Assembly: GCA_964394645.1 (NCBI GenBank)
Contig: CAYMYC010000001.1
Location: 359,705 to 423,704, forward strand
DNA length: 64,000 bases
Direction of reading: 5' to 3'
Source of the DNA: an uncultured Gammaproteobacteria bacterium
GTDB taxonomy: Bacteria; Patescibacteriota; Microgenomatia; Levybacterales; GWA1-39-11
In this document: piece after piece, positions 2,197 to 32,070 of the stretch
Layout: the number at the start of each line of letters is the position of its first letter
Position numbering within the stretch: position 1 is the first letter of the stretch
Translations under genes and position numbers: made by a program
The notes under the pieces: model-generated
What the model was told of the DNA's origin: nothing
Databases searched by the model: none
The model's input: the letters and a program-made list of their open reading frames with translations, nothing else

Positions 2197-2198
2197 GG

Positions 2199-2204: not shown

Positions 2205-2212
2205 GACATTAC

Positions 2213-2986: not shown

Positions 2987-2987
2987 T
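2982..2987 (+). promoter_or_regulatory. -10 box TATAAT (within AAGGTATAAT) 6 nt upstream of ATG 2994, overlapping the upstream stop codon
   Basis: Same 10-mer as at 2195..2204. Last T at 2987, ATG at 2994, so the predicted TSS is the A of the ATG. Confidence 0.35.
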
Positions 2988-2993
2988 AAATAT

Positions 2994-9358: not shown

Positions 9359-9363
9359 TTATA

Positions 9364-10623
9364 ATGAGAAAGCATATAAAAAGAGTAATATCACACCCAC
9401 TCATATCAGGAAGTACGATAATATTTGTCGGGTCATTCGGTGGGAATATTTTAAATTATCTCTTTAATCTATCCGCGGGCAGACTACTATCTATTAATGA
9501 TTATAGAATACTTATCTCACTTACTGCCTTAATAACTCTTCTTATGCTTTTTCAATCAGCGTGGATAAATGTATTTACTAAGTTAGCAGCAAAATTTGCA
9601 CATCAGGGCACTAGCTCCCAAGGATATCTTATTCGTTCAGGGGTAAAACTGACATTTGGAGTCGGAGCAGCATATTTGGTTATGCTAATTCTATTAATCC
9701 ATCCTATATCTGCGTATTTACATATTGATAATACTCTTGTGGTGATAACAATGTTTTGTTCCGTATTTTTTGCAATTGCCGGATCATTGCCTGCGGGCAT
9801 TTTGCAAGGAAATTTAAAATTTGTTTGGGCATCGCTTTCAAATATTGCAGGAGCCCTGGGAAAGTTAATTATAGGAATTATTCTTATCGTTTTGGGATGG
9901 GGATTGTTTGGTGCAGCTCTGGCAGTACTATTTGCATTTATTATTCCGTATACATTCTCAATGATCTATGTACTAAAAAAATATAATTCAGAAAACGTAA
10001 AAAATAAGACACATGTTGATTTTTTTGCGGAGTTTAAAAAAATTTCTGGAGCATTTTTTATTGCTTCAATAGCCATTACTATTCTTCAAGGGACTGACGT
10101 AATTTTTGCAAGTCATTACTTGAATGATATAGAAGCGGGTCAATATGCGGCATTATCTCTTATGGGTAAGGCAATATTCTATATTACTTCGCCTATATAT
10201 TTTGTTTTTTTTCCATTGATTGCTCACAAAAAAGAAAAAAATGAAAGCACAGCCGGAACTATTCTTTTAGCATCTACTATCATTTTTCTGTGCTCTGGGC
10301 TTCTTACTTTCATATACTTTGCACTCCCTTCCCTTGTTTTAAGAGTGTTCTTCCCGGATCCTGTCTATCAACCACTAACTGCATATCTAGGATTTTATTC
10401 TATATACATCATGATATTTTCCTTTTGCTTCTTGTTGTATAATTTCTTTTTATCAGCAGGAAAGATAGGAGTATATAAAATTAACTTAAGTATCGCAATT
10501 TTATATATTTTACTTCTCTTTGTGTATCATAAGACAATTTGGGATTTTATAATTGTACTTACTTTTTCTTCATTTTTACTTTTGATATTACTTCTTGTAT
10601 ACTACAAGCATTATGAGCATTAA
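9364..10623 (+). CDS. polysaccharide biosynthesis flippase (Wzx-like, MOP superfamily)
   Basis: 419 aa with about 12 TM helices. N-terminal 'GSTIIFVGSFGGNILNYLFNLSAGRLLSINDYRILISL' resembles the PF01943 polysaccharide-biosynthesis-protein pattern. Confidence 0.55.
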   Translation: MRKHIKRVISHPLISGSTIIFVGSFGGNILNYLFNLSAGRLLSINDYRILISLTALITLLMLFQSAWINVFTKLAAKFAHQGTSSQGYLIRSGVKLTFGVGAAYLVMLILLIHPISAYLHIDNTLVVITMFCSVFFAIAGSLPAGILQGNLKFVWASLSNIAGALGKLIIGIILIVLGWGLFGAALAVLFAFIIPYTFSMIYVLKKYNSENVKNKTHVDFFAEFKKISGAFFIASIAITILQGTDVIFASHYLNDIEAGQYAALSLMGKAIFYITSPIYFVFFPLIAHKKEKNESTAGTILLASTIIFLCSGLLTFIYFALPSLVLRVFFPDPVYQPLTAYLGFYSIYIMIFSFCFLLYNFFLSAGKIGVYKINLSIAILYILLLFVYHKTIWDFIIVLTFSSFLLLILLLVYYKHYEH

Positions 10624-11356
10624 ATTTCTTTCTTTAGTTGTACCTACGTATCAGCAAGAAAAAAGTATTGTAAAAAACATTATTTCTCTTGAAAATTCGC
10701 TGCAAACAACAGGGATACCGTATGAAATATTAGTAGTTATTGATGGTGCGGTGGATAATACTCAAAAGAAGCTAAGCAAGATAAAAAGTAAGCATGTAAA
10801 AGTTTTATCTTATGAAAAAAATCAGGGTAAAGGATTCGCCGTAAGATATGGGATGCTGCAAGCAAAGGGAGATGTTATAGGATTTATCGATGGAGGATTT
10901 GATTTGGATCCGACGGGGATACTTATGTTGTTGAATCATATGGTTTGGTATAACGCTGATATCATAGTCGGTAGCAAGCTGCATCCAGTCTCTAAAGTTA
11001 AGTATCCATTTTATAGAAAAGTACTTTCTTGGGGGTACAGAACAATTACGCATCTTCTTTTTGGTTTCAAGGTAAGAGATACACAGGTTGGACTTAAACT
11101 ATTTAAAAAAAGAGTAGTACTTGATGTTTTTCCTAGATTAGTAGTAAAAAAATTTGCTTTTGATGTAGAGGTGTTAGCTGTATCGTATAGGATGGGTTAT
11201 AAAAGAATTTATGAAGCTCCAGTAAAACTTAATTTCCGTAATACGAGTACGATAAAGACAAGTACTTTTTGGGGAATCATATCACATATGCTTTGGGACA
11301 CGCTGGGTGTGTATTATAGACTCAAGATACGACGGTACTACGATAAAGCAAAATAA
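10613..11356 (+). CDS. family 2 glycosyltransferase, Dpm1/polyprenol-phosphate-sugar-synthase-like
   Basis: 'LSLVVPTYQQEKSI' and 'FIDGGFDLDP' DxD region. The ATG at 10613 is preferred over the track start at 10595. Confidence 0.65.
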   Translation: MSIKFLSLVVPTYQQEKSIVKNIISLENSLQTTGIPYEILVVIDGAVDNTQKKLSKIKSKHVKVLSYEKNQGKGFAVRYGMLQAKGDVIGFIDGGFDLDPTGILMLLNHMVWYNADIIVGSKLHPVSKVKYPFYRKVLSWGYRTITHLLFGFKVRDTQVGLKLFKKRVVLDVFPRLVVKKFAFDVEVLAVSYRMGYKRIYEAPVKLNFRNTSTIKTSTFWGIISHMLWDTLGVYYRLKIRRYYDKAK

Positions 11357-11358
11357 TA

Positions 11359-12480
11359 ATGCATGTATTAATATTAAATTGGAGAGATATAAAAAATCCA
11401 CAATCAGGCGGAGCGGAGGTTTTAACTCATGAGATATCCAAATATCTTGTACGAAAAAAACATGAAGTAACACTATTTACTTCTGAATTTCCAGGTAGCA
11501 AGAAGCAGGAAACAATAGATGGTGTAAAGATTGTAAGAGCAGGTCATCCTGATTTAAGACATGGGTTTTCATCTGTGCATTATAATGCTTATAAATATTA
11601 TAAAAAGAAGAAGTTCGGGAATATAGATGTTGTGATAGATGAGGTTCACGGGATTCCATTTTTCACGCCACTATATATAAAAGAAAAAAAAGCAGCACTT
11701 GTTTGTGAGTATGCAGGTGATCTTTGGAAATATGCAGTCCCCTTCCCATTTAGTATTCTTGGTCAATTATTTGAACGTACCTACCCATTTTTATATAAAA
11801 AGGACAAGATTATCACAATATCTAAATCTTCTAAGCACGAATTGTGTAAATTGTTTTCAGAAAAAATGATTAGTGTAGTATCTCCCGGGTGTTCCTTTCC
11901 AGTTATTCACAAAATACCTCAAAAAATATTTCCCTTAACGTTTGTGTTTATAGCACGACTCGGGAAGACAAAGGGTGTGGAGGACGCAATTGAAATGATG
12001 AAGATAATAATAAAGTCAGAGAGGGATTCTAAACTATATATTATAGGAAGAGGAGATGGGAAATACATTGATAAGCTCAAAAAACAGATTTATAAAGATG
12101 GGCTTGGTTCAGCAATTCATTTTTTCGGTTTTGTAAGTGATCAAGAAAAATGTGAGATAATTGATAGGTCACATATATTAATTGCCCCATCCAGGAAAGA
12201 GGGATGGGGTTTAACGGTGCATGAGGTTGGAGCACGCGGAGTGCCAACAGTAGGCTACGATGTTCCAGGGTTAAACGAGGTTATAATAAAAAATGTTAAT
12301 GGTGAAATTTGCCGTACGAACACCCCTTACGAGTTAGCTAGAGTATCACTTTCTCTCTATAGAGATAAAATAAGATACAAGAAGCTGCAGAATGGTGCAC
12401 TGTCTGAGAGAATGAAGTTTACTTGGGATAAAACAGGGGAAACTTTCCTGAAACTTATTAGTGAGTATGAAAAAAAATAA
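11359..12480 (+). CDS. family 4 glycosyltransferase
   Basis: 'SRKEGWGLTVHEVGARGVPTVGYDVPGLNEVI' EX7E-type C-terminal motif. Confidence 0.75.
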   Translation: MHVLILNWRDIKNPQSGGAEVLTHEISKYLVRKKHEVTLFTSEFPGSKKQETIDGVKIVRAGHPDLRHGFSSVHYNAYKYYKKKKFGNIDVVIDEVHGIPFFTPLYIKEKKAALVCEYAGDLWKYAVPFPFSILGQLFERTYPFLYKKDKIITISKSSKHELCKLFSEKMISVVSPGCSFPVIHKIPQKIFPLTFVFIARLGKTKGVEDAIEMMKIIIKSERDSKLYIIGRGDGKYIDKLKKQIYKDGLGSAIHFFGFVSDQEKCEIIDRSHILIAPSRKEGWGLTVHEVGARGVPTVGYDVPGLNEVIIKNVNGEICRTNTPYELARVSLSLYRDKIRYKKLQNGALSERMKFTWDKTGETFLKLISEYEKK

Positions 12481-13792
12481 AAATAATATATTTTTGTTTT
12501 TATGTGTAGCTGTAATTACAGTAGGGTTTTTGCTACGTTTTCATAACTATAATATGTGGCCAAGATTTGGCGCCACTTTTGATGAATATGCATGGACATG
12601 GCAGGGAATGAATTTAATACAGCATGGTGTTCCGGTCTCATGGTCTCCACATCCTCAATACACATCTTCACAATCTGTAATTTATCAACAAACTCACTTT
12701 CGAATCGTTACACCATTTTTAGAGCATCCTCCTCTGTTTGGTATTGTTGCGGGAGAATTTGCAATTTTAAATGGGGCAACAGATATGTACAAGCTTCACC
12801 TTTCACAAATTCGTCCTTTGGCGCTTTTACTTGGAACACTTAGCTTAATATTGCTAATTGCATTAGGCACTGAATTATATGGGAAAAAAATAGGTTTATT
12901 TGTAGGCGTTCTCTATGCAACAATACCTACGATTGTTATAGGTTCAAGAATTGTACAGAATGAAAATTTCTTTATTCCCGTATGGTTATTTTCATTGCTT
13001 TTAACTGCAAGATACCTACGCAATAAGAGAAAATGGCTTAGAAATATAATCGTTTTACTGTCTACATTATTAGTTTTAGCAAAGATTCCATGGGTTGCTG
13101 CCGGATTATCAATAATTGCGATATTTTTATATTATAAAAAATATAAGGATGCAGCATTTGTCCTAAGTGGGATACTAGCTGGACTTATTCTTTTTGCACT
13201 GTATGGACTATTTTTTGATTGGAATTTATTTATAAGTCTCTGGAAACTTCAGGCGGCAAGATATGACATTTCATTTACCAGTATTTTTGCTCTATTTCAA
13301 AAGCCATTTCTTGTAGACAGGTATTACACAGATGGTTGGATGTACTTTGGATGGTTTGCAACATTTCTTTTGTTTGCAAAAGATTTAAAAAAATACATTT
13401 TTATTGTTGCGCCAATATTGTCTTATTTTCTGATATTTTTAGCAGGTATACCTGATGAGGCAGGACATGGCTGGTACAGATATCCTTTTTACCCATTTCT
13501 TATTGTATCAATTGCGTTGTTTATAAAAGAATATTATGCAAAAAATTTTCTTTTAACATTTATTTTTCTCGTGCTTATTGGATCATCTTTGTTAGGACTC
13601 ACATGGGAGGTTGTTTTTGGGTATTCATTCTATGTTTTTAGATTGGCAATCATTTCTTGGCTTTTTATTTTACTGCCTATATTTCCTTTATTTAATAAGT
13701 TAGGTGTCTTAAGCAAGCGGGTATCTTACGTATGGCTTATATGTTTTTTTCTTATGAACATTTGGGCATCTCTAATATACAATGAACAATAA
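12461..13792 (+). CDS. GT-C-fold membrane glycosyltransferase (ArnT/PMT-like, GT39/GT83-type)
   Basis: 443 aa, multi-TM. Canonical loop-1 'FDEYAWTWQG' DE motif. Confidence 0.5.
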   Translation: MSMKKNKNNIFLFLCVAVITVGFLLRFHNYNMWPRFGATFDEYAWTWQGMNLIQHGVPVSWSPHPQYTSSQSVIYQQTHFRIVTPFLEHPPLFGIVAGEFAILNGATDMYKLHLSQIRPLALLLGTLSLILLIALGTELYGKKIGLFVGVLYATIPTIVIGSRIVQNENFFIPVWLFSLLLTARYLRNKRKWLRNIIVLLSTLLVLAKIPWVAAGLSIIAIFLYYKKYKDAAFVLSGILAGLILFALYGLFFDWNLFISLWKLQAARYDISFTSIFALFQKPFLVDRYYTDGWMYFGWFATFLLFAKDLKKYIFIVAPILSYFLIFLAGIPDEAGHGWYRYPFYPFLIVSIALFIKEYYAKNFLLTFIFLVLIGSSLLGLTWEVVFGYSFYVFRLAIISWLFILLPIFPLFNKLGVLSKRVSYVWLICFFLMNIWASLIYNEQ

Positions 13793-14615
13793 AGTTTCCA
13801 TAGTTATTCCCACAAAAAATTCCGACATGTTTCTTGAAAATGCATTTAAAAGTATTAAGTCTCAAACATACAAAGATATTGAGGTGATTATTGTTGATGG
13901 CCAATCAACAGACAAAACATTGCAATTGGCAAAAAAATATAATGCTTTGGTGTATCAGTTAAAAGTAGATGTGCCAAAAGGAACGTTTGATGCTCCTTAT
14001 AGAAGAAATTATGGTGTTAAAAAATCAAAAGGAGATTATGTTTATTATCTTGATGCAGATATGGAGTTGGAAAAAAATGTTGTGAAAGAGGCTGTAGGAG
14101 CATGCATTAAGGGTGGATACGATGCAGTTATAATTCCTGAAAATTCCTTTGGGAGCGGACCATGGGCAAAAGCAAAAAACCTTGAGAGAATGTGTTATTG
14201 GGGAGATGACAGTGTTGAAGCTCCAAGGTTTTTTAAAAAGAAAGTATGGCATGAGGTGGGAGGATTAGACGTGGGCTTAGGTGGAGGTGGAGATGATTGG
14301 GATTTATATCAAAAATTACTTGATCTCAATAAGCGAATTGGAAGAACTCATAGTATGGTTAATCACAATGAAGGTCATTTAAAGATAAAAAAACTTATGA
14401 AAAAGCGCTTTATGTACGGCAGAGACTCTGCAAGATATATTTCTAAGCGCCCAAAGCAAGGACTTATTAGTTATTTTCCTATACGCCCAGCATATATCAG
14501 GAACTGGAAGCTATTTATGACGCGACCAAAAGATACTTGCAGCTTCATTGTCATGCGAAGCGCTGAATATATTGCCGGATTTTCGGGTATAATGTATTCT
14601 CTTTTAAAAAGATGA
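13782..14615 (+). CDS. family 2 glycosyltransferase
   Basis: 'VSIVIPTKNSDMFL', 'IIVDGQSTDKT', 'LDADMEL'. Confidence 0.7.
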   Translation: MNNKVSIVIPTKNSDMFLENAFKSIKSQTYKDIEVIIVDGQSTDKTLQLAKKYNALVYQLKVDVPKGTFDAPYRRNYGVKKSKGDYVYYLDADMELEKNVVKEAVGACIKGGYDAVIIPENSFGSGPWAKAKNLERMCYWGDDSVEAPRFFKKKVWHEVGGLDVGLGGGGDDWDLYQKLLDLNKRIGRTHSMVNHNEGHLKIKKLMKKRFMYGRDSARYISKRPKQGLISYFPIRPAYIRNWKLFMTRPKDTCSFIVMRSAEYIAGFSGIMYSLLKR

Positions 14616-15580
14616 AGTCTTTCTGGAAAAATAAAAAAGTTTTAGTTATGGGAGCAGGTGGGTTCATTGGGTCACATGTAGTGGACGTTCTTGTAGCAGG
14701 GGGTGCGATGGTAACTGCGCAGGTGTTTGTAAGCGGCGATAAAAATAAAAACTTAGCTCAATCAATGCATAGTATAAAAATCGTTAAAGGAGATCTTACA
14801 GATCTATCTTTTTGTTTGAAAATTGCACAAGGACAGAATATTTTATTAAATTTTGCAGGTATGGATGGTGGAACATCATTCAAGAAAGAGCATGCGGCAG
14901 AGATTTTGAGAATAAACTCATTGATAACTCTTAATGCGCTTGAAGCGGCAAGAATACACAAGCTAGAAAGAGTTTTGCTTGTAAGCTCTGTTGTTGTGTA
15001 TGCAAATTCAACACCTCAGCCCATAAAAGAAGAGTATGGATATATTCAGGATCCTTCAGATTTTGTTGATGGTTATACCTGGTCCAAAAAATTCTTAGAG
15101 TCTGCTGCAAAAACTTACAACACACAATATAATCTTAACGTAAATGTTGTGCGGTTGGGAAATGTATATGGCCCACGAGATTCTCTGGCTAAAGGGAGAG
15201 TTATACCAACTTTTATCAACCAAGCATTAAACAATGAGACAATGACTATACTAAATGGTGGTACACAGCGCATGGCTTTTCTTCATGTAGAGGATTTGGC
15301 ATTTTTTATCTTGAAATGTGTAGAAAAAGAACTTGGTTCAGATCCTCTTAACATTGGTAGTGACAAATATATTTCAATAAGGGAGCTGGCTGAAATGATA
15401 ATTAAACTTACTAGAAGCAAGAGTACGCTTAAAGATATAAAAAAATCACAAAACTTTGCAAGTAGAGTAGTAGATGTTAGCATGTCGAAAAAGTTACTTA
15501 AAATTAATGAACGCAAGGACATAGGTCAGGGTTTGATAGAGATTGTTGACGATATGAGGAAGACGTATTATCATAGGTAG
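14612..15580 (+). CDS. NAD-dependent sugar-nucleotide epimerase/dehydratase (SDR)
   Basis: 'VLVMGAGGFIGSHVVD' and 'YTWSKKFLE' YxxxK. Confidence 0.7.
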   Translation: MKSFWKNKKVLVMGAGGFIGSHVVDVLVAGGAMVTAQVFVSGDKNKNLAQSMHSIKIVKGDLTDLSFCLKIAQGQNILLNFAGMDGGTSFKKEHAAEILRINSLITLNALEAARIHKLERVLLVSSVVVYANSTPQPIKEEYGYIQDPSDFVDGYTWSKKFLESAAKTYNTQYNLNVNVVRLGNVYGPRDSLAKGRVIPTFINQALNNETMTILNGGTQRMAFLHVEDLAFFILKCVEKELGSDPLNIGSDKYISIRELAEMIIKLTRSKSTLKDIKKSQNFASRVVDVSMSKKLLKINERKDIGQGLIEIVDDMRKTYYHR

Positions 15581-15596
15581 TCTTGCATGATTCCAA

Positions 15597-16349
15597 ATGT
15601 TGCTAGATGAATTCTATATGCTATTAAAATACTTTAAAAATTATGCCCACACCGTTTTTAATGATTGGATGAGGCAAAACGTTAAGGCAGTTTTGTCGCT
15701 TATAGATCAGGGAGATTCATTTGTGGATCTTGGGTGTGGTGACGGTAGATTAACTAAGCAGTTTGCTAAAAAGGCAAAGGCTAAAACAGTTATTGGTTTG
15801 GATAGTTTGCCATCAAAAAAAAGCGGAATCAAAATAGTAAAGGGGGATCTTAATAGAAAACTTCCATTTAAGAGCAACTCGTTTGACATTGCGACAAGTC
15901 ATTATAGTCTAGAGCATCTATATAACACTGGACTTTTTATATCTGAAACACATAGAATTCTCAAAAAGGGGGGTTATACTGTTGTTGCAACTGATAACTT
16001 ATCAAATTGGCCCACAATAATCGCGTTGATATTTGGATATCAGCCTTTTTCCTTAACCTGCGGCATAAGTAAAAGATCTATAGGAAACCCTTTTGCGATA
16101 CGTTCAAACTTCGGAGAAGTGGTGAGTGACAGGAATTTAGATTTAGACTGGAGGGTTTCGGGTGAGTGGAGCCATAACAAAGTGTTGTCTTACAAAGCCC
16201 TTTTGGAGGCGTATGAAGAATATGGATTTAAAATTGAAAAAGTGATTGGAGTAGGATATCTCCCGTTTAAGGGATTTTTATCTAGGTTTTTTGCAAATTT
16301 AGATAAAAGACACGCATATCTTCTTATAATAAAGGCTCGGAAAATATGA
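15597..16349 (+). CDS. class I SAM-dependent methyltransferase
   Basis: 'FVDLGCGDGRLT' motif I. 'HYSLEHL' motif. Confidence 0.65.
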   Translation: MLLDEFYMLLKYFKNYAHTVFNDWMRQNVKAVLSLIDQGDSFVDLGCGDGRLTKQFAKKAKAKTVIGLDSLPSKKSGIKIVKGDLNRKLPFKSNSFDIATSHYSLEHLYNTGLFISETHRILKKGGYTVVATDNLSNWPTIIALIFGYQPFSLTCGISKRSIGNPFAIRSNFGEVVSDRNLDLDWRVSGEWSHNKVLSYKALLEAYEEYGFKIEKVIGVGYLPFKGFLSRFFANLDKRHAYLLIIKARKI

Positions 16350-16392
16350 TTTTCAATCATATCTATTGATAAAACGTATAGAATTATATATT

Positions 16393-17409
16393 ATGGTGAT
16401 TGTGAAAAAGAGTCCAAAAAAGATAGTCAAGAAAAAAACAATAAAAGCTGCATTAGTTTGCGGTGCAGGTGGGTTTATAGGAAGTCACTTGGTTAAGAGA
16501 CTAAAAAAAGAGGGGTACTGGGTAAGAGGCGTAGATGTTAAAAAACCTGAATATAGTAAAACACTTGCAGATGAGTTTATAATTGGTGATCTTCGTGATC
16601 AAAAAATTTGTAAAAAGGTTCTTGATAGGCCTTTTGATGAGGTGTATCAGTTGGCAGCTGATATGGGGGGAGCCGGTTATATTTTTTCAGGTGAACACGA
16701 TGCAGATGTAATGCATAATTCAGCGCAAATTAACCTTAATGTGCTGCATTATGGAAAAATAGCGGGGATTAAGAAAATATTTTTTTCCTCATCTGCTTGT
16801 ATTTACCCAGAACACAATCAGTTGGACCCAAATAATCCAAATTGTGAAGAAGAATCCGCATATCCTGCGGCACCGGACAGTGAATATGGTTGGGAAAAAC
16901 TATTTGGTGAGCGTATGTATCTAGCCTATAACAGAAATTATAAAATGCAGGTTCGTATTGCTCGTTTCCACAATGTTTTTGGCCCTGAGGGAGCATGGAA
17001 CAATGGAAAAGAAAAATCTCCTGCAGCAATTTGCCGAAAGATTGCGGAGGCAAAAGAAGGGGGTACTATTGAGATTTGGGGAGATGGTAAGCAGACAAGA
17101 TCCTATTTGTTTATAGATGAATGTCTTGTGGGGGTAAGAAAGCTTATGAATTCAAAGTTTACAGGTCCGGTTAACATTGGGTCAGACGAGATGATTTCAA
17201 TAAATGATTTGGCCAAAATGGTAATGGGGATAACTGGAAAGAAGGTAAAAATAAAGCATGTAGAGGGACCACTGGGGGTAAGAGGAAGGACTTCTGATAA
17301 TAAACTTATTAAAAAGGAGTTAAACTGGAGTCCTAGTATGCCGCTTGTAGATGGTATGACTCAAACATTTTTGTGGATTGATGAACAGGTGAGAAAGAAG
17401 AAAAAATAA
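16393..17409 (+). CDS. GDP-mannose 3,5-epimerase (GME) homolog
   Basis: Near-collinear similarity to plant/bacterial GME from memory. Matching blocks include 'VCGAGGFIGSH', 'AADMGG', 'SSACIYPE', 'RFHNVFGP', 'EKSPAAICRK', 'IWGDGKQTRS', 'FIDEC' and 'VNIGSDEMIS'. The track start at 16366 is TTG. ATG 16393 is preferred. Confidence 0.7.
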   Translation: MVIVKKSPKKIVKKKTIKAALVCGAGGFIGSHLVKRLKKEGYWVRGVDVKKPEYSKTLADEFIIGDLRDQKICKKVLDRPFDEVYQLAADMGGAGYIFSGEHDADVMHNSAQINLNVLHYGKIAGIKKIFFSSSACIYPEHNQLDPNNPNCEEESAYPAAPDSEYGWEKLFGERMYLAYNRNYKMQVRIARFHNVFGPEGAWNNGKEKSPAAICRKIAEAKEGGTIEIWGDGKQTRSYLFIDECLVGVRKLMNSKFTGPVNIGSDEMISINDLAKMVMGITGKKVKIKHVEGPLGVRGRTSDNKLIKKELNWSPSMPLVDGMTQTFLWIDEQVRKKKK

Positions 17410-17410
17410 T

Positions 17411-18238
17411 ATGATTAAAAACTTAGTTATAGGATCAGATGGATTTATTGGTGACCCATTTTGTAAATTTCTTGAAGAAAAAGGCGAGAAGGCTACAAGA
17501 TTTGACATAAAAAGAAAAAAAGTTGAAGACGGACGAACCTTTAAGTTCAATTTTAAAGAGTATGATAAGGTATATTTTCTCGCATGGGATGTAGGTGGGT
17601 CAAAATATCTTTACGAGTCAAAGCTCCAGATGTTCCAATTAAAATGGAATCTTGATTTGATGAGAAACGTTTTTGATCAATTAGAAAAACAAAAACATAC
17701 AGATTTCCTTTTTGTTTCAAGTCAGTTAGCAGAAGAGTGCGATACGGTTTATGGGGTAACAAAAAGGTTAGGTGAGGTTTGGACTCGTCAGTTGGGGGGA
17801 GTATGCATTAGAGTATGGAATGCGTATGGCTATATGGAGCCGTTAAATATTAAGAGTCACGTGATATCTGATTTTATCTATCAAGCGCTTCAAAAGAAAA
17901 AAATAAGCATGATGACAAATGGTTTAGAGTGGAGACAATTTACTCACATAAGAGATTTAAGCAACGCGTTTCATATGAGTCTTAATTCAAAAGATTTAAA
18001 AAGAACCGTGTATGATGCAAGCAGCTATGAATGGGTACGTATAGTAGATATAGCAAAAATCATAGCAGACATAACGGGCTCAAAGTTAAATCTGGGTGAC
18101 AAGATGGGGCATGATCCTCTCCCATCTGTTAATATGGGCAGAATACCAGGATGGCTTCCAAATGTGGAGTTGAGAGAAGGCATTCAGGAAATGGTAGATC
18201 AAGCAAGGGAAATGTTAAGAAATGAGAAAAAGAAGTAA
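17411..18238 (+). CDS. short SDR-family sugar-nucleotide epimerase/reductase (RmlD-like size)
   Basis: 'LVIGSDGFIGD' Rossmann variant and 'YGVTKRLGE' YxxxK. 275 aa. Confidence 0.5.
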   Translation: MIKNLVIGSDGFIGDPFCKFLEEKGEKATRFDIKRKKVEDGRTFKFNFKEYDKVYFLAWDVGGSKYLYESKLQMFQLKWNLDLMRNVFDQLEKQKHTDFLFVSSQLAEECDTVYGVTKRLGEVWTRQLGGVCIRVWNAYGYMEPLNIKSHVISDFIYQALQKKKISMMTNGLEWRQFTHIRDLSNAFHMSLNSKDLKRTVYDASSYEWVRIVDIAKIIADITGSKLNLGDKMGHDPLPSVNMGRIPGWLPNVELREGIQEMVDQAREMLRNEKKK

Positions 18239-19478
18239 AATTCCTCTGTCAAAAGAATCCTCGGTGCTTTTCGTTACATTCTCCAGGTGGACTAATAAAA
18301 AAAGATTGCCAACGAATGGCAGCATAGAACCACTTCGTGATTTTTTACTTCCAAAAGTTAAAAAGCTGGTTATTATAGATCAGCTTCATCCTGGTAGTGA
18401 TGGCGTTATGCCGCGTATAGAAGTTTTTAAAAATAACAGTCAAAAATTCAAATTATTTAAGTCATCAGGGTTAGTATATTGGCTGTATCCTTTTCTAAAA
18501 ATGTCTAAGTCTGAAAAAACTCAAATTAGATTTAAACTTCGAGATTTCTTGTCAGTAATAGACTGGGTGATACAAGACAGGGCGCACTACAATTTTTTTA
18601 TTGGTCTTGAAAGTGTAAATACTATTGCTGGAATTATTTTAAGAAGTATTGGCCGGGTTGATATAGTGGTCTATTATGTCTCTGATTATTCTCCCAACAG
18701 ATACCCCAGTAAGTTATTTAATAGTGTATACCTCTGGCTCGACAGATTCTGTGCGATGCATGCTGATTACGTTTGGGATGTGTCTCCTGCTATGCAAAAG
18801 GCACGAATTAGTGTGGGACTAAATCCACAAAAATCAGCACCAGTTATAGGTGTTGCCAACGGTCTATTTCCAGATCAAATAAGAAAGAACCCACTTTCAA
18901 AAATAAAGAGGCAGGAATTAGTTTACATGGGAACATTAGGTGCAGAAAATGGACCCGATATTGCCATAAGATCCATATCTTTACTCAAAGATACATTTAA
19001 AGATATTAGATTGCACATTGTAGGAGGAACTGAAAAAGACTCAATTTGGCTCATGGAGATAGTAAGAAAGTTAAAGCTTGAAGATTTTGTGATTTTTCAT
19101 GGATTTATTCCAAGTAGTATTGAGATGTCTGAAATTATAAGAGGATGCGCAATTGGTCTTGCTCCATACCGCAATATACCTGGATCAATTAGGAAATATG
19201 CAGATGCAGGAAAGATCAGAGCGTACTGTGCGTCTGGTCTTCCTGTAGTGTCTTCCTACGTTCCGCCCCTAGGAGTACAGCTAGAAAAAAAAGGAGGAGC
19301 TTTGCTTGCAAAAGACAATCCAAAGGATTTCGCAAAAGCAATAAATATACTTTTATCTGATAAGCATCTGTATGAGAAATTGCGAAATGATGCTTACCTT
19401 TTTGCAAAAAATAGCACATGGGACAATACTTTTTCAAATGCCTTTCGCAATATGGAGCTATTTGTATTAAAATACTAA
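18222..19478 (+). CDS. GT-B-fold glycosyltransferase (non-canonical GT4-like)
   Basis: C-terminal 'IGLAPYRNIPGSIRKYADAGKIRAYCASGLPVVSS'. Paralogous to ORF 30898..32067. Confidence 0.5.
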   Translation: MRKRSKIPLSKESSVLFVTFSRWTNKKRLPTNGSIEPLRDFLLPKVKKLVIIDQLHPGSDGVMPRIEVFKNNSQKFKLFKSSGLVYWLYPFLKMSKSEKTQIRFKLRDFLSVIDWVIQDRAHYNFFIGLESVNTIAGIILRSIGRVDIVVYYVSDYSPNRYPSKLFNSVYLWLDRFCAMHADYVWDVSPAMQKARISVGLNPQKSAPVIGVANGLFPDQIRKNPLSKIKRQELVYMGTLGAENGPDIAIRSISLLKDTFKDIRLHIVGGTEKDSIWLMEIVRKLKLEDFVIFHGFIPSSIEMSEIIRGCAIGLAPYRNIPGSIRKYADAGKIRAYCASGLPVVSSYVPPLGVQLEKKGGALLAKDNPKDFAKAINILLSDKHLYEKLRNDAYLFAKNSTWDNTFSNAFRNMELFVLKY

Positions 19479-19484
19479 AGAAGC

Positions 19485-20126
19485 ATGGGAATTAAAAAAC
19501 AAATTTCAAAATACCAGAATCTGTTCTTTATTTTTGTAATGGAGCAGCAGCTTAAAGGTTGTAGATCTGTATTAGATGTTGGATGTGGGCATAGTTCAAT
19601 AGTAGGATCTCTAAAAAAGACTTTTAGCAGTGAAGGGATAGATATTCATAAAAAGACTATAGATTTAAGTCGGAAAAATAAAACCCATGATAAATATAAG
19701 ATAGGTAACATAATGAGTCTACCCAATTTCTATAAAAAGAAAAGTTTTGATGCATGTGTATCAATCGACGTAATAGAGCACTTTACTAAAAAAGACGCAC
19801 TAAGGCTGATTAAAAATATGGAGAATGTTGCTGTAAAAAAGATTATTATTCTTACACCTAACGGGTTTTATGAGCAGCATGATTATGATGGTAATCCTCA
19901 TCAAGAACACAAATCAGGTTGGAGTAAAAATGATTTGGAAAAATTAGGATATAAAGTTTACGGGTTAAGGGGACTTAAGTACTTGCGAGATGAGCATGCA
20001 GGTATCAAATATAAGCCATGGGCATTTTGGGGGGCTTGTGGATTTATTTCAGAAATATTATTTTTTCCATTTGCTTCAGCATCATTTGATCTATTGGCAA
20101 TTAAAGATTTAAAAGAAAAAGCGTAA
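19485..20126 (+). CDS. class I SAM-dependent methyltransferase
   Basis: 'VLDVGCGHSS' motif I. 'SIDVIEHF'. Confidence 0.6.
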   Translation: MGIKKQISKYQNLFFIFVMEQQLKGCRSVLDVGCGHSSIVGSLKKTFSSEGIDIHKKTIDLSRKNKTHDKYKIGNIMSLPNFYKKKSFDACVSIDVIEHFTKKDALRLIKNMENVAVKKIIILTPNGFYEQHDYDGNPHQEHKSGWSKNDLEKLGYKVYGLRGLKYLRDEHAGIKYKPWAFWGACGFISEILFFPFASASFDLLAIKDLKEKA

Positions 20127-20196
20127 AGATTCACTGCTAAGCTTCATATAAAGTTCCTACTTCAACCCTGAAGTAAGCAGTATAATCTAAATTCAT

Positions 20197-20811
20197 ATGA
20201 AAATTAAAACTATCTTTGAAATCATTAAAAGAAAAGGTCTAATTGACACATTTTGTAGTTTACTAGGAATGTTTACGCTCAGAATTTCCTCAAGCACTAA
20301 AATAGAAGTATTGAGACTGAGAGGGTATGGTATTAGCCGTTCGGCAATACTATATGGTCAAAATGTTTTTTTTCAAAGCGAAAAAAACTCAGTAGTCATA
20401 AAAGATCACACGCGTTTGGGGCATGGTGTGCGTATTAAATCAGGGTTTCAGGGAAAAATTATTATTGGGAAAAGTGTTTTAATAGACGACAATTCATATG
20501 TCAGCGCACATGAGCGTATAGTGATTGGGGATGAGAGTATGATTGCTGCAAATGTATATATTGTAGATTTTAACCATTTATATCCTCTACAAAAATCAAA
20601 AAAACTAATCGGTAAAAAAAGTGGGTATGAAGCGGAGGCGATTGTTATTGGGAGGTATGTATGGATAGGCGCAAATGCTGTGATACTTAAGGGTGTGACA
20701 ATAGGTGATAATGCAGTTGTTGGAGCTAGTAGTGTAGTTACAAAAGATGTTCCAGAAAATACTGTGGTTGCGGGTTGTCCAGCTAAAGTAATTAAACGTA
20801 TAAATTTATGA
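20197..20811 (+). CDS. hexapeptide-repeat (LbH) sugar O-acetyltransferase (Mac/WcaF/WbbJ-like)
   Basis: Imperfect [LIV]-G-x-x-x-x repeats. C-terminal 'VVAGCPAKVIKR'. Confidence 0.7.
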   Translation: MKIKTIFEIIKRKGLIDTFCSLLGMFTLRISSSTKIEVLRLRGYGISRSAILYGQNVFFQSEKNSVVIKDHTRLGHGVRIKSGFQGKIIIGKSVLIDDNSYVSAHERIVIGDESMIAANVYIVDFNHLYPLQKSKKLIGKKSGYEAEAIVIGRYVWIGANAVILKGVTIGDNAVVGASSVVTKDVPENTVVAGCPAKVIKRINL

Positions 20812-22997
20812 AGGAAAAACTAAAGAGATTGCTTATATTTTTACTAAATTTTTCTGTAATTTTGTTTTTATTTTATCTCCCCTTTTATCTATTTGAAGGC
20901 AGACTTTTTTTAGGAGGAGATGATACGCGTTTTTATTATGCATACCCAAGTGAAGTTCTGGTTACATTTGCTTTATCTTCTTGGAATAATATATCTTCTC
21001 TTCCATTATCAATTCCTAACTTTCAGCTTGTACCATTGTTAATCGTATCCATAATCTTAGAAAATATCATTAAATCTAAGGTGATACTTTTTTATTTTTT
21101 GTTTTCACTACCTTTAGTAGTTGGTTTTATATATTTTCAGAAGTTGGTAAGGGAGTTGATAGGGAAAGACTATATTATTTCATTTACGGCAGCATTTTTA
21201 TTTGTACTATCTCCAATAACAGTAGTAAGCCACATATCGCACTTTTTAACACCAGTGTGGCTCATTGCGCTTGCTCCGATTATTTCGTATTACTACATAA
21301 GATATATTCGGGTAGGGAAAATAATAGATATTTGTAAGGTTGTGCTATGGTCTATATTTCTTTCATTTGCATACCTTGCTGTTCCATGGATGCTTGGGTT
21401 ATTGCTTCCTTTTACTTGTGGATTTTTAGTGTATTTTATTTTTGTTGAGAATCCAATTAAAAAAATACTGAGGAGATCTACTGAATTTTTGTTTTTTATT
21501 CTTGCAAGTCAATTATTTTGGTTTTTCCCATTTATAATGTCTTTGACATATTTAGGCGAAAAAGATTTGGGAGGACAAGTTGTTTCAAAAAATTTAATTG
21601 ATAGTTTTTCCCCTACGGTGTTAGCAATTGCAACAGGAAATATCATCAACCCATTATTAACCTTATACCATAGGCAAATAGCATTTGAGTATGATTGGCA
21701 TCTAAAAAAAGTCTTTTTAGATTTTTTTGATCCGTACTTACTAATAGGTACAGTCTTTATTTTTGTCATATTTTTAGGGATCATCAGATACAAGAAAGTT
21801 TTAAGGGGAGATCAAGAAAGAATGTTTTTATTCTTTTTTATAGTTTTCATTTTTGCGTTGTATTTTTTTACTGTAAACATAGGTTTTTTAGTGAACATCT
21901 TTCTTTCATTTAAAGTTATTCCAGGGTTTTCAATTTTGAGAAATTTTATTGATAAATCATCCTTGGGATATATATTTGCATATGCAATTTTTCTATCATT
22001 CTGCCTTCTAGTAGCTAAAAAAACATTTAAATTTTACCCTTTACTTGTAGTGGTAGTGGTATTGGTTATGGCAGTTAATTCAATTCCTATAAAGCAATTA
22101 GTTGATAGTCCTGTATGGACTACAAAGAGTATTAAGCAAACAGTCACAATCCCAGAAGAATATATATCATTTACAAAAGATGTAAAATCAATTGTAAAAA
22201 ATTCAAGTAATATTTTCTCATTACCACAGAACGTGGCATCATACTCTGTGATAGCAGAAACAAATGGGAGGCATGTCTATTTAGGCACCTCTCCATTTAA
22301 ATTTTTCTCCGGAATAAATGATTTAACGGGTCATTATCCAGACGCCGCTGAAAAAAGTATTCGAAAAGCAGTAATGGATAGAAACTATAGCCGCCTACTT
22401 GAGATATTTGAAAACTATAATATTGGATATTTGATGGTTACAAATAATATCCCAAAAGAAATTTATGGATCATATTTGATAGACTCTGATTACATAAAGT
22501 TTCAAGATCAAAAATTGATTGATGGGATTGAGCAAAGAAAACTATTATCCAGTAAAAACAAGAACTATGAATTGTATGAATTAAAAGTAAGGCCAAGCAT
22601 ACTTTCAAGCATAAATTCTGTCACATTTGAAAAAGTGGATTCTTCAAAGTATAAAATGAGTTTAAGTTCTGCAAACAATAATAAAAACCTAGAATTTTTG
22701 GAAACTTATCATCCTGGATGGAAATTATATGTTGAGAACGATAGCTATGGGACGAAGAATGTTTTCAATTTTTCTGATATCTCATATTTATTAAAAAAAC
22801 CCATTTTTGATGAAACACATAATACTTTATCTCCGTATGGGAATGTATGGAAAATAGAGGGCATACGTAAAAGTACACCTGTGACACTATATTTTCTCCC
22901 ACAGTCTTACTTCTATATGGGAATAGCTTTAACCATTACATTACTGTTTATAGGATTTATATACTTGGCTATAGTCTCTAAAAATAAGAAACAGTGA
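20808..22997 (+). CDS. YfhO-like GT-C membrane glycosyltransferase candidate
   Basis: 729 aa. About 430-aa multi-TM N-domain with 'LGGDDTRFYYAYP' loop motif. About 280-aa extracytoplasmic domain. 'YHPGWKLYVEN' motif (nt 22707..22721). Terminal TM anchor. Confidence 0.5.
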   Translation: MKEKLKRLLIFLLNFSVILFLFYLPFYLFEGRLFLGGDDTRFYYAYPSEVLVTFALSSWNNISSLPLSIPNFQLVPLLIVSIILENIIKSKVILFYFLFSLPLVVGFIYFQKLVRELIGKDYIISFTAAFLFVLSPITVVSHISHFLTPVWLIALAPIISYYYIRYIRVGKIIDICKVVLWSIFLSFAYLAVPWMLGLLLPFTCGFLVYFIFVENPIKKILRRSTEFLFFILASQLFWFFPFIMSLTYLGEKDLGGQVVSKNLIDSFSPTVLAIATGNIINPLLTLYHRQIAFEYDWHLKKVFLDFFDPYLLIGTVFIFVIFLGIIRYKKVLRGDQERMFLFFFIVFIFALYFFTVNIGFLVNIFLSFKVIPGFSILRNFIDKSSLGYIFAYAIFLSFCLLVAKKTFKFYPLLVVVVVLVMAVNSIPIKQLVDSPVWTTKSIKQTVTIPEEYISFTKDVKSIVKNSSNIFSLPQNVASYSVIAETNGRHVYLGTSPFKFFSGINDLTGHYPDAAEKSIRKAVMDRNYSRLLEIFENYNIGYLMVTNNIPKEIYGSYLIDSDYIKFQDQKLIDGIEQRKLLSSKNKNYELYELKVRPSILSSINSVTFEKVDSSKYKMSLSSANNNKNLEFLETYHPGWKLYVENDSYGTKNVFNFSDISYLLKKPIFDETHNTLSPYGNVWKIEGIRKSTPVTLYFLPQSYFYMGIALTITLLFIGFIYLAIVSKNKKQ

Positions 22998-24052
22998 AAG
23001 AAAGAAATAACAACAACAAATATAAATTGATATTTAAGTGGATTCTAATCCCTTTTGCACTTTTGCTATTTTGGTTTTTTGCATCATTAGTATTTAGTAC
23101 AGAGAAGGGATTTTCAGTGCTTCAATATTCTCACAATAAAGATGAGAATAACGCGTTTAATGAAAAGCAGCTGTTTAAAGGCGAAAAAGTTGAAGGCCAA
23201 TTCGTTGCAAAAGAAAATAACCTCGGAATAGTTTCTATAAGGTTTGGCAATGTACCCGATGTTGAATTTAACAAATTAGATAGGATGATTTTTAGAATTA
23301 AAGAAAAAGGGAGTAATTATTGGTATTACGAAAATATATACAGGGCAAATTTAGCTAAGCAAAATCGTTATCTTACCTTAGGCTTTGTGCCCATAGCAGA
23401 TTCCAAAGATAAGACATATCAATTTGAGTTAATTTCCTTACATGGTAATTCTCAAAATGCGGTAGAGATAAGCAATAAAGACCCCATTTACTTTTCCCTC
23501 TACAAATTTACAAAACAAGATGTATTAAATGATAAAGATTCAGTTATAAGATTTTGGCTGAATATGGTTGAAGCGTTCTTAGCAAATATTGATTCTCTTC
23601 TTTCCTCTTCATTATTTCTACTTCCGCTCGTTTTTTATATGACATGGATCATAATTGTCCAAGATCATCTAGATGAAAGATATTTGAAAAGCGGAAAAAA
23701 ACATGAATTTTATCTAAAAAAAGTACTAAAAATGTATTATAAAAATAGAAAAAGTATCTTTTCTATTATGGTTTTAGTACTATTGTTTTGTGATGCGATC
23801 CTGTTTCATGAAGAGATTACAGGATTTATACTTGGGCTAACGGGCCTTTGGATTATTGTTGTCTACATAAATAAGTTAAACAACATAGCAACATTTAAAA
23901 TTGCTTTTCTTTTAATTGCTATATCTATTATATCTACTTACTTTATGAGTTCACTATCAGTCAATAAACTTAGTATATATGCATATTTATTGTTACTAAT
24001 TGGTTGCATTCAAATGCTTGTGGCATACAAAAGACGACGTATTACTTATTGA
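22994..24052 (+). CDS. hypothetical membrane protein
   Basis: N-terminal TM segment, an extracytoplasmic domain of about 170 aa, and about 4 C-terminal TM segments. No motif I recognise. Confidence 0.4.
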   Translation: MKERNNNNKYKLIFKWILIPFALLLFWFFASLVFSTEKGFSVLQYSHNKDENNAFNEKQLFKGEKVEGQFVAKENNLGIVSIRFGNVPDVEFNKLDRMIFRIKEKGSNYWYYENIYRANLAKQNRYLTLGFVPIADSKDKTYQFELISLHGNSQNAVEISNKDPIYFSLYKFTKQDVLNDKDSVIRFWLNMVEAFLANIDSLLSSSLFLLPLVFYMTWIIIVQDHLDERYLKSGKKHEFYLKKVLKMYYKNRKSIFSIMVLVLLFCDAILFHEEITGFILGLTGLWIIVVYINKLNNIATFKIAFLLIAISIISTYFMSSLSVNKLSIYAYLLLLIGCIQMLVAYKRRRITY

Positions 24053-25016
24053 TAAGATTGTATAGATTATTTGAAATTATTTTGTGCGCATTAAGCGTAG
24101 GGTGTATATCATCAGCGTAGTCTTTGTCAGTTAGCCAAGTTGAGGTATCTATAAATTCTGCGCTATTTTTTTCAGCCACATTTTCTGCCTCACTATTATA
24201 TGAATTAATTACATCGGTGTTAATATCACTTCTTAGCAAAATTCCAACAACAAACAATTTCCCTGTGTTCCATTTTTTTAAATCTGTAAGAATTTTATTG
24301 AGCGTCGCCCCAAAAGATGCGACAGGTACGTTATTGGCTATGTCGTTTGTACCAAGAAAGATGATTGTTGCAGACGATTTATAATTTGATATATCCTTTT
24401 TATAACGATCTTGTGCGCTTGGAGTTGAAGGTATTTTAACAAGGGTAGAGCTAAGTATGCTTGAATTGTGAAGTTCATATCTTAATTTATCTGCAAGTAA
24501 TATTGTGTAGTTACCTTTTCCGTACATGGTTGAGATCGAGTCGCCAATCACCGAAATAGTCTTTTTATGGGGCTTATAAGTGGTAATTACTGCATTTGCG
24601 GGTGCACGTAAACTTGTTAGTTGTATACTGCATGGATCATAGAAATATTCACAGATGTATCGTATTGAAATTTTATTACTTTCTTCTTTATCAAGAGATA
24701 TTTTTATTGATTTATTATTTTGAGCAGGGTAGGAGTAGTATTCTTTTTTTCCATTTAGTGTTATCTCAATACTTTGAGTTGCTTTGGATACTGTGTTGAA
24801 TTTGAATTCAATAATACTTGTATTTGATATAGATAAAGCTATTTCTGAGCCTGAATATGTGCTTTGATTGTTTATCCAACTTTTACTTTTATAAAGTATC
24901 GGGTTGTAACTCATATCAATTTCTCTATTTGAGTATTGATTATGTGCGTAATAGACAGACATTGAAAAAAAAATAAAAAATAGAGTAAGTGCTATGTGCT
25001 TTTTTATATGTTTCAT
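24042..25016 (-). CDS. secreted SGNH/GDSL hydrolase (putative glycan O-acetyl esterase)
   Basis: Signal peptide. Block I 'VIGDSIS', block III 'GTNDIA', block V 'DDIHPT'. One of only two antisense genes inside the glycan locus. Confidence 0.7.
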   Translation of the reverse strand: MKHIKKHIALTLFFIFFSMSVYYAHNQYSNREIDMSYNPILYKSKSWINNQSTYSGSEIALSISNTSIIEFKFNTVSKATQSIEITLNGKKEYYSYPAQNNKSIKISLDKEESNKISIRYICEYFYDPCSIQLTSLRAPANAVITTYKPHKKTISVIGDSISTMYGKGNYTILLADKLRYELHNSSILSSTLVKIPSTPSAQDRYKKDISNYKSSATIIFLGTNDIANNVPVASFGATLNKILTDLKKWNTGKLFVVGILLRSDINTDVINSYNSEAENVAEKNSAEFIDTSTWLTDKDYADDIHPTLNAHKIISNNLYNLINK

Positions 25017-25072
25017 GGAATTGTATTATATTTGTATTTTGTTATAATTGCTACTATGCCTACTTATCTAAC

Positions 25073-26749: not shown

Positions 26750-26750
26750 C

Positions 26751-28156: not shown

Positions 28157-28256
28157 ACAAAATTATACCATAATTTCTAATGCAAATTAGAGAGGAATAT
28201 ATTATAATCACTGATATGCAAAAATTCTGCCAAAAAATTGTATACGTCTATTAACG

Positions 28257-29790: not shown

Positions 29791-29792
29791 GA

Positions 29793-30884: not shown

Positions 30885-30897
30885 TCCGCATATCATT

Positions 30898-32067: not shown

Positions 32068-32070
32068 ATA

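Follow-up and report, generated by a model that had tools for sequence, protein, structure and literature searches.

Only one or two bacterial GDP-mannose 3,5-epimerases (GMEs) have been characterised, and just 18 bacterial sequences bore that name in UniProt in 2019 (PMC6678494). A characterised example, MfGM35E of Methylacidiphilum fumariolicum, is about 50% identical to the Arabidopsis enzyme (AtGME); an N-terminal GxxGxxG/A motif for NAD binding is listed among the features of GMEs, and Arg306 of AtGME has a role in thiolate stabilisation (PMC6678494). The same paper mentions the actinomycete homologues BlmG (bleomycin) and MtdM (A201A) as enzymes that supply a dedicated transferase with GDP-L-gulose or GDP-L-galactose (PMC6678494). 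[quoted passage not shown]

Within the window, the whole 64-kb stretch of DNA that was analysed, a GME gene belongs to a surface-glycan locus that spans about 50 kb. The genome has a low GC content (about 33%) and is probably that of a member of the Patescibacteria. The genes of this locus that bear on the argument are as follows.

13782..14615, forward strand: GT2 glycosyltransferase, 277 aa (Pfam Glycos_transf_2, E 7e-25)
14612..15580, forward strand: SDR322, an epimerase/reductase-like extended SDR (best PDB matches GME, 2e-29, and UDP-xylose synthase (UXS), 1e-26)
15597..16349, forward strand: SAM-dependent methyltransferase, 250 aa, flanked by SDR322 and GME (Pfam Methyltransf_11/23/25)
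16393..17409, forward strand: GDP-mannose 3,5-epimerase (GME), 338 aa from an ATG start, assigned on its match to PDB 2c59 and its residue set
17411..18238, forward strand: SDR275, a short extended SDR of an uncharacterised family, 275 aa (Pfam PF01370, E 5.9e-18)
18222..19478, forward strand: GT1, a GT-B glycosyltransferase, 418 aa, third gene of the trio (C-terminal half matching Pfam Glyco_trans_1_4 and Glycos_transf_1)
19485..20126, forward strand: SAM-dependent methyltransferase, 213 aa, a frequent fourth gene of the module (Pfam Methyltransf_11/25/31)
20197..20811, forward strand: hexapeptide-repeat acyl/acetyltransferase, 204 aa, a conserved module member (Pfam Hexapep, E 7e-18)
20808..22997, forward strand: polytopic membrane protein without family assignment, 729 aa, a conserved downstream partner
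47763..48845, forward strand: ManC-like mannose-1-phosphate guanylyltransferase without a PMI domain (PDB 2x5s, TIGR01479)

The GME and SDR275 reading frames are both present as the preliminary description had placed them, and all the motifs it quoted from the first (AADMGG, SSACIYPE, RFHNVFGP, EKSPAAICRK, IWGDGKQTRS, FIDEC and VNIGSDEMIS) and from the second (YGVTKR) occur in the translations. An alternative in-frame TTG at 16366 would extend GME to 347 aa, both starts being used by database gene calls. When the PDB was searched with phmmer, the GME ORF matched Arabidopsis GME (2c59) at E 1.1e-98 (334 bits, residues 21-337; about 49.5% identity over 311 aa), the next family after the plant GMEs being UXS, at 5e-28. 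Given this match and the hundreds of database homologues that are 65-99% identical, the similarity is far beyond chance. Pfam returned only the generic models PF01370 and PF16363, and NCBIfam holds no GME model, every match of its models to this ORF falling far below the cutoff.

The NAD-binding motif reads G24-A-G-G27-F-I-G30, in which G24 and G27 are invariant among 101 bacterial homologues and the third position is Gly in 98 and Ala in three. Also invariant in these homologues are the triad S134, Y165 and K169, aligned to Ser, Tyr174 and Lys178 of AtGME; the acid/base pair C136 (in SSACIYPE) and K208 (in GKEKSPAA), corresponding to Cys145 and Lys217; and R299 (in GVRGRT), corresponding to Arg306. 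On this residue evidence the ORF is a member of the true GME family (EC 5.1.3.18). As the full catalytic set is conserved and the plant enzymes are the best solved relatives, the earlier proposal of GME homology stands, and neither an ordinary UDP-glucose 4-epimerase nor a UXS lacking the GME residues is indicated. On its own, the assignment is routine.

The likeness to AtGME extends over the full length, and the glycine motif, triad, Cys/Lys pair and Arg are identical in MfGM35E too, which has an adjoining glycosyltransferase and a methyltransferase nearby (PMC6678494). Unlike these two enzymes, the window GME is set in a Patescibacteria-type surface-glycan locus without an ascorbate pathway, has an additional short SDR coupled to it and carries a lysine-rich N-terminal extension. 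BlmG and MtdM serve secondary-metabolite glycosylation, whereas the window GME is followed by an SDR and has a predicted cell-surface glycan as its destination; in A201A, the enzyme that acts after MtdM is a GDP-L-galactose mutase, not an SDR. The GDP-heptose tailoring set of Campylobacter jejuni consists of the C4-dehydrogenase Cj1427 (structure 6vo6), cupin epimerases and C4-reductases; the module described here differs in having no cupin epimerase, and GME would by itself oxidise, epimerise and reduce the sugar within a single active site.

Bacterial GME homologues had been described as uncommon, which is wrong: counting one genome per species, full-length copies (63-81% identity) were found in the genomes of at least 80 species from many phyla, out of 503 confirmed relatives. 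The bacterial family is thus widespread and strongly conserved, its active site being invariant, hence L-galactose and L-gulose may feature in the surface glycans of bacteria much more often than annotation implies. No SDR275 adjoins the gene in 78 of 101 sampled bacterial GMEs, so GME is not dependent on SDR275. A difference between linked and unlinked GMEs was sought among the 101 homologues and rejected at functional positions; the columns that do separate them are mostly Lys substitutions, consistent with low-GC composition, and the linked GMEs do not form a clean clade. A literature search found no description of the SDR275 family or of GME in Patescibacteria.

Substrate for the epimerase could be provided from within the window. 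The GDP-mannose pyrophosphorylase proposed at 47763..48845 is confirmed by a full-length match to the Thermotoga maritima mannose-1-phosphate guanylyltransferase 2x5s (residues 1-352, E 4.1e-50) and by a match to the N-terminal domain of TIGR01479 (positions 2-350 of 467, E 4.9e-70), the score staying under the cutoff of that model because the PMI domain is absent.

The genes of the trio are tightly packed: the TAA stop of GME occupies 17407-17409 and is separated by a single base from the ATG of SDR275 at 17411, and the start of GT1 overlaps SDR275 by 17 nt. The order GME-SDR275-GT1 is found in loci L001, L004 and L084-L086 and in 17 metagenome loci, with gaps of 0-29 nt or overlaps. GME lies immediately upstream of the SDR275 homologue in all 16 metagenome loci in which the SDR reaches 60% identity or more and enough upstream sequence is available; this group was used for the count because an identity cutoff near 56-57% fails to separate GME-linked from unlinked relatives of SDR275. 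The SDR is directly followed by GT1 in 15 metagenome loci as well as in L084-L086, and loci of close relatives generally read GME, then SDR275, then usually a glycosyltransferase of 416-418 aa. A sequence search of the PDB with GT1 gave no match. The cluster of the 213-aa methyltransferase (C7) follows GT1 in seven metagenome loci, a GME-type module being present in eight of the nine C7 loci, and the cluster of the acyl/acetyltransferase (C5) is represented in 11 GME-type loci.

SDR275 belongs to a coherent family, which amounts to about 209 clusters when grouped at 50% identity and has the hallmark FLA[FWY]DVGG together with a Ser-to-Tyr spacing of 10 aa. It keeps the NAD-binding glycine motif in a Rossmann domain and the C-terminal NDP-binding domain of extended NDP-sugar-active SDRs (PF01370), and S104, Y114 and K118 of the Ser-Tyr-Lys triad are conserved across the family along with D32, N137 and H150; it also carries a conserved Arg175-x-Phe motif and Asp182. 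The end of beta-2 holds an Asp and not a basic residue (Asp32, in 119 of 124 family members), which would weakly favour NAD over NADPH. The spacing from Ser to Tyr is 9-11 aa in all 124 members, against 29-31 aa in GDP-L-fucose synthase (GFS) and GME; the segment holding the catalytic Cys of those two enzymes is deleted, and no conserved Cys was found among the 124. A 3,5-epimerase of the GFS or GME type was rejected because the Cys that should stand two positions beyond the triad Ser is missing; with the loop that bears it lost, SDR275 cannot be a 3,5-epimerase.

The AF2 model of SDR275 has a pLDDT of 89.9, and the protein has no close solved relative, the best profile match having an E value of 9e-10. 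Its placement in the GME/GFS lineage through a common A-x-D-x-G-G motif was rejected, as hhalign does not single out any one family as the nearest (GME 1e-12, the unrelated SDR at 34336 2e-12, GFS 2e-8, GalE 8e-8). Likewise, the equation of His150 (in SHVIS; kept in 94% of the family) with the catalytic His179 of GDP-fucose synthase was dropped as non-specific, because the GalE of the window has SHLIP at the same position. The best functional analogy for SDR275 is PhGal4E_1, whose conserved Asn and loop His might have counterparts in N137 and H150, although H150 and H182 are equated by motif position only and SDR275 is about 50 aa shorter, lacking the loop of about 20 aa that separates the catalytic Ser from the Tyr. 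Membership of the PhGal4E_1 subgroup is unsupported, the profile matches to 8rdg (1.7e-5) and 3aw9 (2e-8) being no better than those to UXS or UDP-GlcA 4-epimerase.

The pathway that we favour for the surface glycan, with a probability of roughly 60%, would begin with GDP-alpha-D-mannose made by ManC. GME, using tightly bound NAD+, would oxidise C4, invert C5 and C3 through Cys136 and Lys208 and re-reduce C4, with GDP-beta-L-galactose and GDP-beta-L-gulose as the products predicted from conservation of the full catalytic set. One further redox-mediated change would then be made on the GDP-L-hexose, most likely by SDR275. Conserved gene order suggests that the resulting sugar would be moved to a lipid-linked glycan by the overlapping 418-aa glycosyltransferase, and thereafter decorated by the adjoining methyltransferase and acetyltransferase. 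That SDR275 might act on the GME product had been raised in the preliminary description and is plausible, the strict synteny strengthening the idea; SDR275 probably does modify GDP-L-hexose further, with C4 epimerisation as the leading, if weak, guess at the reaction. The trio points to a rare L-sugar at the cell surface. It forms a concrete, directly testable three-protein system, which could reveal the surface L-sugar of ultra-small Patescibacteria, with a bearing on host attachment, and is a candidate source of enzymes for rare L-sugar nucleotides.

A bolder extension, which we put forward only tentatively, is that the SDR275 family might be a functionally new class of NDP-sugar SDRs of minimal size (about 270 aa). 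From GDP-beta-L-galactose or GDP-beta-L-gulose (GDP-L-fucose in the relatives linked to gmd/fcl), its members would make another rare nucleotide-activated L-hexose, for example GDP-L-glucose, GDP-L-allose or GDP-L-quinovose, and pass it straight to a dedicated glycosyltransferase. If this were true, Patescibacteria and other bacteria would display L-sugars without a known biosynthetic route.

SDR275 might instead make a donor unrelated to GME, for instance an epimerised UDP-sugar, for the adjoining glycosyltransferase, with GME feeding another transferase; this we doubt. The structures closest to SDR275 are indeed those of UDP-sugar enzymes (UXS, MoeE5 and UDP-GlcNAc 4-epimerase), and across the family only a glycosyltransferase, and not GME, is a universal neighbour. 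More distant members lie directly before a GT2 and are sometimes near gmd/fcl, an association that is moderate only. However, throughout the clade that holds the window copy GME is directly upstream, within 0-29 nt, and the only nucleotide-sugar genes to recur beside the family in neighbour clustering are those of GDP-hexose enzymes (GME, gmd and fcl).

It is also unlikely that SDR275 works as an RMD/GTS-type C4-ketoreductase, which would act on GDP-4-keto-6-deoxy-D-mannose, supplied by a GMD encoded elsewhere in the genome, to give GDP-D-rhamnose or GDP-6-deoxy-D-talose, so that its adjacency to GME would mean that a single glycan draws on two separate donors. The similarity of SDR275 to RMD is marginal (profile E 4e-4), and Asp32, in favouring NAD over NADPH, argues weakly against such an activity. 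Pfam scans of the ORFs and tblastn with the GMD of locus L120 detected no GDP-mannose 4,6-dehydratase in the 64-kb window, where the best tblastn match (21.7% identity) was to the GalE ORF, and there is none in the flanks of the GME-type loci. Adjacency in 16 of 16 loci and translational coupling to GME are, moreover, hard to square with separate pathways.

Proteins in which the SDR is fused to a glycosyltransferase occur in both orders, SDR-GT2 and GT2-SDR, and the SDR invariably adjoins a glycosyltransferase, as might be expected if the substrate of SDR275 were a sugar already transferred to a lipid or polymer (cf. DprE2) or if SDR275 were a non-catalytic partner of the transferase. The fusions are explained equally well by the joining of a donor-making enzyme to its own transferase, and the Arg175-x-Phe motif, Asp182 and intact catalytic triad speak against both variants, which we judge improbable.

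The 6-deoxy-L-hexose route of the preliminary description, in which ORF 14612 would be a dehydratase working with GME and SDR275 towards a GDP-6-deoxy-L-hexose, is very improbable, as ORF 14612 (SDR322), although matching PF16363 (GDP_Man_Dehyd) at 2.3e-25, a model that also matches epimerases generally, has S125-S126-V-V-V-Y in place of the Thr-[Asp/Ser]-Glu motif of 4,6-dehydratases (T-S-E in the GMD of L120) and resembles dehydratases no more closely than it does GME or UXS. With the true GMD as query, no match in the window exceeds 22% identity, and SDR275 compared with GMD in hhalign gives an E value of 0.16.

The remaining motifs of SDR322 are GAGGFIG and YTWSK, the SSVVVYA segment being the one that replaces the dehydratase motif, and no Cys is present; many members of its family have the motif Glu where the window copy has Val. 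SDR322 is found upstream of GME in a subset of loci only. The stop of the 277-aa GT2 gene overlaps the start of SDR322, and this glycosyltransferase is kept in loci L097-L099 at 56-61% identity, as is the 250-aa methyltransferase at 50-72%. At the other end of the module, the 729-aa membrane protein had no match in Pfam; homologues (cluster C17) with 43-57% identity are present in L089, L097-L099 and L103.

The window encodes a GDP-mannose 3,5-epimerase (GME), an ordinary further member of a family that is known and widespread. Among all PDB chains, the top phmmer matches were the plant enzymes 2c59 (Arabidopsis; E 1.1e-98, residues 21-337) and 8sg0 (2.5e-95), with UDP-xylose synthase (UXS) the next family at 5e-28 and GalE-type epimerases weaker still; plant GMEs, rather than UXS or 4-epimerases, are thus its best solved relatives, as the preliminary description had proposed. 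Pfam and NCBIfam returned generic SDR matches only, as neither holds a GME-specific model. The 49.5% identity to Arabidopsis GME, over 311 aligned residues, is at the same level as the 50.5% of the Methylacidiphilum fumariolicum enzyme, the sole biochemically characterised bacterial GME (PMC6678494). The defining features of GMEs are a GxxGxxG/A motif, a Ser/Tyr/Lys triad, the catalytic residues Cys145 and Lys217, and Arg306 (PMC6678494; also a 2022 review); their counterparts here are G24/G27/G30, S134/Y165/K169, C136, K208 and R299, the Arabidopsis numbering having been cross-checked against the mutant PDB chains K178R, Y174F and K217A. Across 101 aligned bacterial homologues, drawn from the retrieved loci, these positions are invariant, except for three alanines at the third glycine.

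Both this gene and the short SDR that follows it lie where they had been placed, and all the peptide motifs quoted for them were found in the translations. The principal genes are:

14612..15580, + strand: extended SDR (SDR322)
16393..17409, + strand: GME, ATG start, 338 aa
17411..18238, + strand: short SDR, 275 aa (SDR275)
18222..19478, + strand: glycosyltransferase, 418 aa (GT1)
47763..48845, + strand: ManC-like mannose-1-phosphate guanylyltransferase

An in-frame TTG at 16366 would add nine residues to GME, and public gene calls use either start. The GME stop codon (TAA, 17407-17409) is separated by one base from the ATG of SDR275, which GT1 overlaps by 17 nt. Between 13782 and 24052 all genes are on the + strand, at spacings of up to 70 nt or with overlaps of 4-17 nt, and the array is operon-like.

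The accompanying view that bacterial GME homologues are uncommon does not hold: at least 503 relatives were confirmed among at least 600 pattern matches in a scan that covered each GTDB species by one genome. The 80 listed GME loci, from these 503 or more, are all full-length and 63-81% identical, and are labelled as Patescibacteria lineages, Bacteroidota (Puia, Arcticibacter, Emticicia), Ignavibacteriota, Alphaproteobacteria (e.g. Parablastomonas), Acidobacteriota, Planctomycetota, Omnitrophica, Myxococcota and others, whilst the best 120 of at least 8000 protein-database candidates are clusters all 74-99% identical. The impression of rarity stems from annotation: in 2019, GME was the name of just 18 bacterial entries in UniProt (PMC6678494). 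Close homologues carry the NCBI label Patescibacteria, which makes this group the likely source. Two GTDB representative genomes (L001 and L004) with the GME-SDR275 pair, at 79-81% and 72-76% identity, are titled 'uncultured Gammaproteobacteria bacterium'; since most close homologues are labelled Patescibacteria, the taxon given for these third-party MAG assemblies seems unreliable.

What the analysis adds is a conserved module of GME, short SDR and glycosyltransferase in Patescibacteria. When the genome scan was seeded with GME, SDR275 directly followed it in only two of the 80 listed loci, hence GME does not require SDR275. A metagenome scan seeded with motifs of the SDR275 family gave 80 loci, and GME was immediately upstream, at gaps of 6-29 nt, in all 16 having an SDR at least 60% identical to SDR275 and at least 600 nt of upstream sequence. 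One more locus, with a 57% identical SDR, also has GME upstream, and three at contig edges have partial GMEs. A GT1 homologue of 414-418 aa lies directly downstream in 15 loci and just before GME in two others; on long contigs the order is the same, and next come genes for a methyltransferase, a large membrane protein, a hexapeptide acetyltransferase and a GDSL/SGNH protein. SDR-linked and unlinked GMEs do not differ at any active-site position.

GME never adjoins the more distant relatives of SDR275 (45-57% identity) in the metagenome loci. [quoted passage not shown] The constant theme of the family is therefore an SDR immediately before a glycosyltransferase. By neighbour clustering, the only recurrent nucleotide-sugar pathway genes beside it are GDP-hexose-acting; together with the gmd/fcl flanks, this link to GDP-hexoses is suggestive only. 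One metagenome locus (L095) has, about 4 kb from a GME-SDR275 pair, a genuine GDP-L-fucose synthase that shares 61% identity with the fcl reference, so both routes to GDP-beta-L-galacto-configured sugars can coexist with SDR275.

SDR275 belongs to an uncharacterised short-SDR family, defined here. It matches PF01370 at 5.9e-18, but the solved structures include no close relative, the best single-sequence match being the C-terminal half of UXS (E 5e-8) and the best profile match a UDP-GlcA 4-epimerase (9e-10). When 1.84 billion cluster representatives were searched by profile, 209 clusters matched at E up to 1e-30 and 901 at up to 1e-10, nearly all of 255-300 aa. The family is coherent: conservation computed over 124 representatives picks out G8/G11/G14 (GxxGxxG), Asp32 at the end of beta-2 (96%), the motif F-L-A-[FWY]-D-V-G-G with G62 invariant, Asn80 (100%), Ser103/Ser104, Tyr114 (98%), Lys118 (100%), Asn137 (99%), His150 (94%), Asp154 and Arg175 (97%). 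The catalytic Ser and Tyr are 9-11 residues apart in 124/124 members, against 31 in GME, 29 in GDP-L-fucose synthase and 25 in GalE, so the Cys-bearing loop of the first two is absent; no Cys is conserved across the 124. The AlphaFold model is confident (pLDDT 89.9, pTM 0.89) and has a compact Rossmann domain with the usual C-terminal NDP-binding domain. Some members (the metagenome proteins P0320, P0321, P0279 and P0355) are natural fusions, to GT2 in both orders, a Methyltransf_24/CmcI-like O-methyltransferase or a GHMP-kinase domain.

A suggested route to a 6-deoxy-L-hexose, with SDR322 as dehydratase, finds no support. The best solved relatives of this extended SDR are GME (2e-29) and UXS (1e-26), with no dehydratase nearest, and it reads S-V-V where a real GDP-mannose 4,6-dehydratase has T-S-E and GME S-A-C, hence it lacks both the Glu of dehydratases and the Cys of the epimerase. 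A genuine 4,6-dehydratase from a fetched locus found nothing in the 64-kb window better than GalE, at 21.7% identity. The position equivalent to Cys136 is Glu in many SDR322 relatives (SSIEVYP, resembling the dehydratase/decarboxylase Glu); SDR322 and the three relatives nearest to it have Val there, suggesting that function has recently changed or been lost in this sub-branch.

On strong homology, the pathway would begin with ManC supplying GDP-mannose; the predicted guanylyltransferase was borne out by a full-length match to that of T. maritima (E 4.1e-50), and it has no PMI domain. Since its active site is fully conserved with characterised enzymes, GME would turn GDP-mannose into GDP-beta-L-galactose and GDP-beta-L-gulose, through C4 oxidation, C5/C3 inversion via Cys136/Lys208 and re-reduction. 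Strict adjacency and translational coupling suggest that SDR275 acts on the resulting GDP-L-hexose, probably by a single redox-mediated inversion. C4 is, weakly, the leading candidate site, because SDR275 keeps the Ser/Tyr/Lys triad only, has Asp at the NAD-selective position and is slightly most like C4-epimerases. There is a precedent for such a step: the GDP-sugar 4-epimerases of archaea interconvert GDP-L-Fuc or GDP-L-Gal and the corresponding C4 epimers (PMC12171764). By sequence, SDR275 falls outside that subgroup. From gene order, the overlapping GT1 would then transfer the sugar, and the methyltransferase and acetyltransferase would modify the glycan.

The window has a GC content of around 33%. 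Of its 58 ORFs that reach 120 aa, 53 lie on the + strand; this strong bias, and a GC skew positive in every 2-kb bin of 1..64000, fit a position of the entire window on a single leading-strand replichore. A single large glycan-assembly region occupies it from the start to around 51 kb, with many GT2 and GT4 transferases, membrane glycosyltransferases (two PMT_2-type, one YfhO-type), several methyl- and acetyltransferases and a DegT aminotransferase branch. Also in this region, with the genes that come after it, are:

2994: GalE (PDB 2c20 at E 4e-87)
9364: Wzx-like flippase
48851: initiating Bac_transf phosphoglycosyltransferase
beyond 51.5 kb: housekeeping genes, namely recO, a class II tRNA synthetase and the group mraZ, mraW, ftsI, murE, murA

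An RmlC-like cupin of the dTDP-4-dehydrorhamnose 3,5-epimerase family (57767..58381, - strand; PF00908 at 1e-29) sits in this dcw-type cluster between ftsI (56085..57770), whose end it overlaps by 4 nt, and a murE-like ligase (58472..59977); no rmlA, rmlB or rmlD was found in the 64-kb window. A separate amino-sugar branch (29107..35355) comprises a PglD-like acetyltransferase (29107), a DegT/EryC1 aminotransferase (29793, 5e-93), a GT4 (30898), a 676-aa unannotated membrane ORF (32071) and a third epimerase-like SDR (34336..35355, TSSMSVYGA/YAISK). A 179-aa ORF (35427..35966), equivalent to the N-terminal Glyco_transf_4 half only, lies just before a complete 375-aa GT4 (36018..37145), and may be what a duplication has left behind, either a fragment of a glycosyltransferase or a pseudogene. 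The large ORFs 715..2196, 20808..22997, 24989..26749 and 38586..41708 have no Pfam match. The second, of 729 aa, looks like a polytopic membrane protein and is conserved downstream of the GME module (43-57% identity, five loci); possible identities are an unrecognised transferase of GT-C type and a polymerase.
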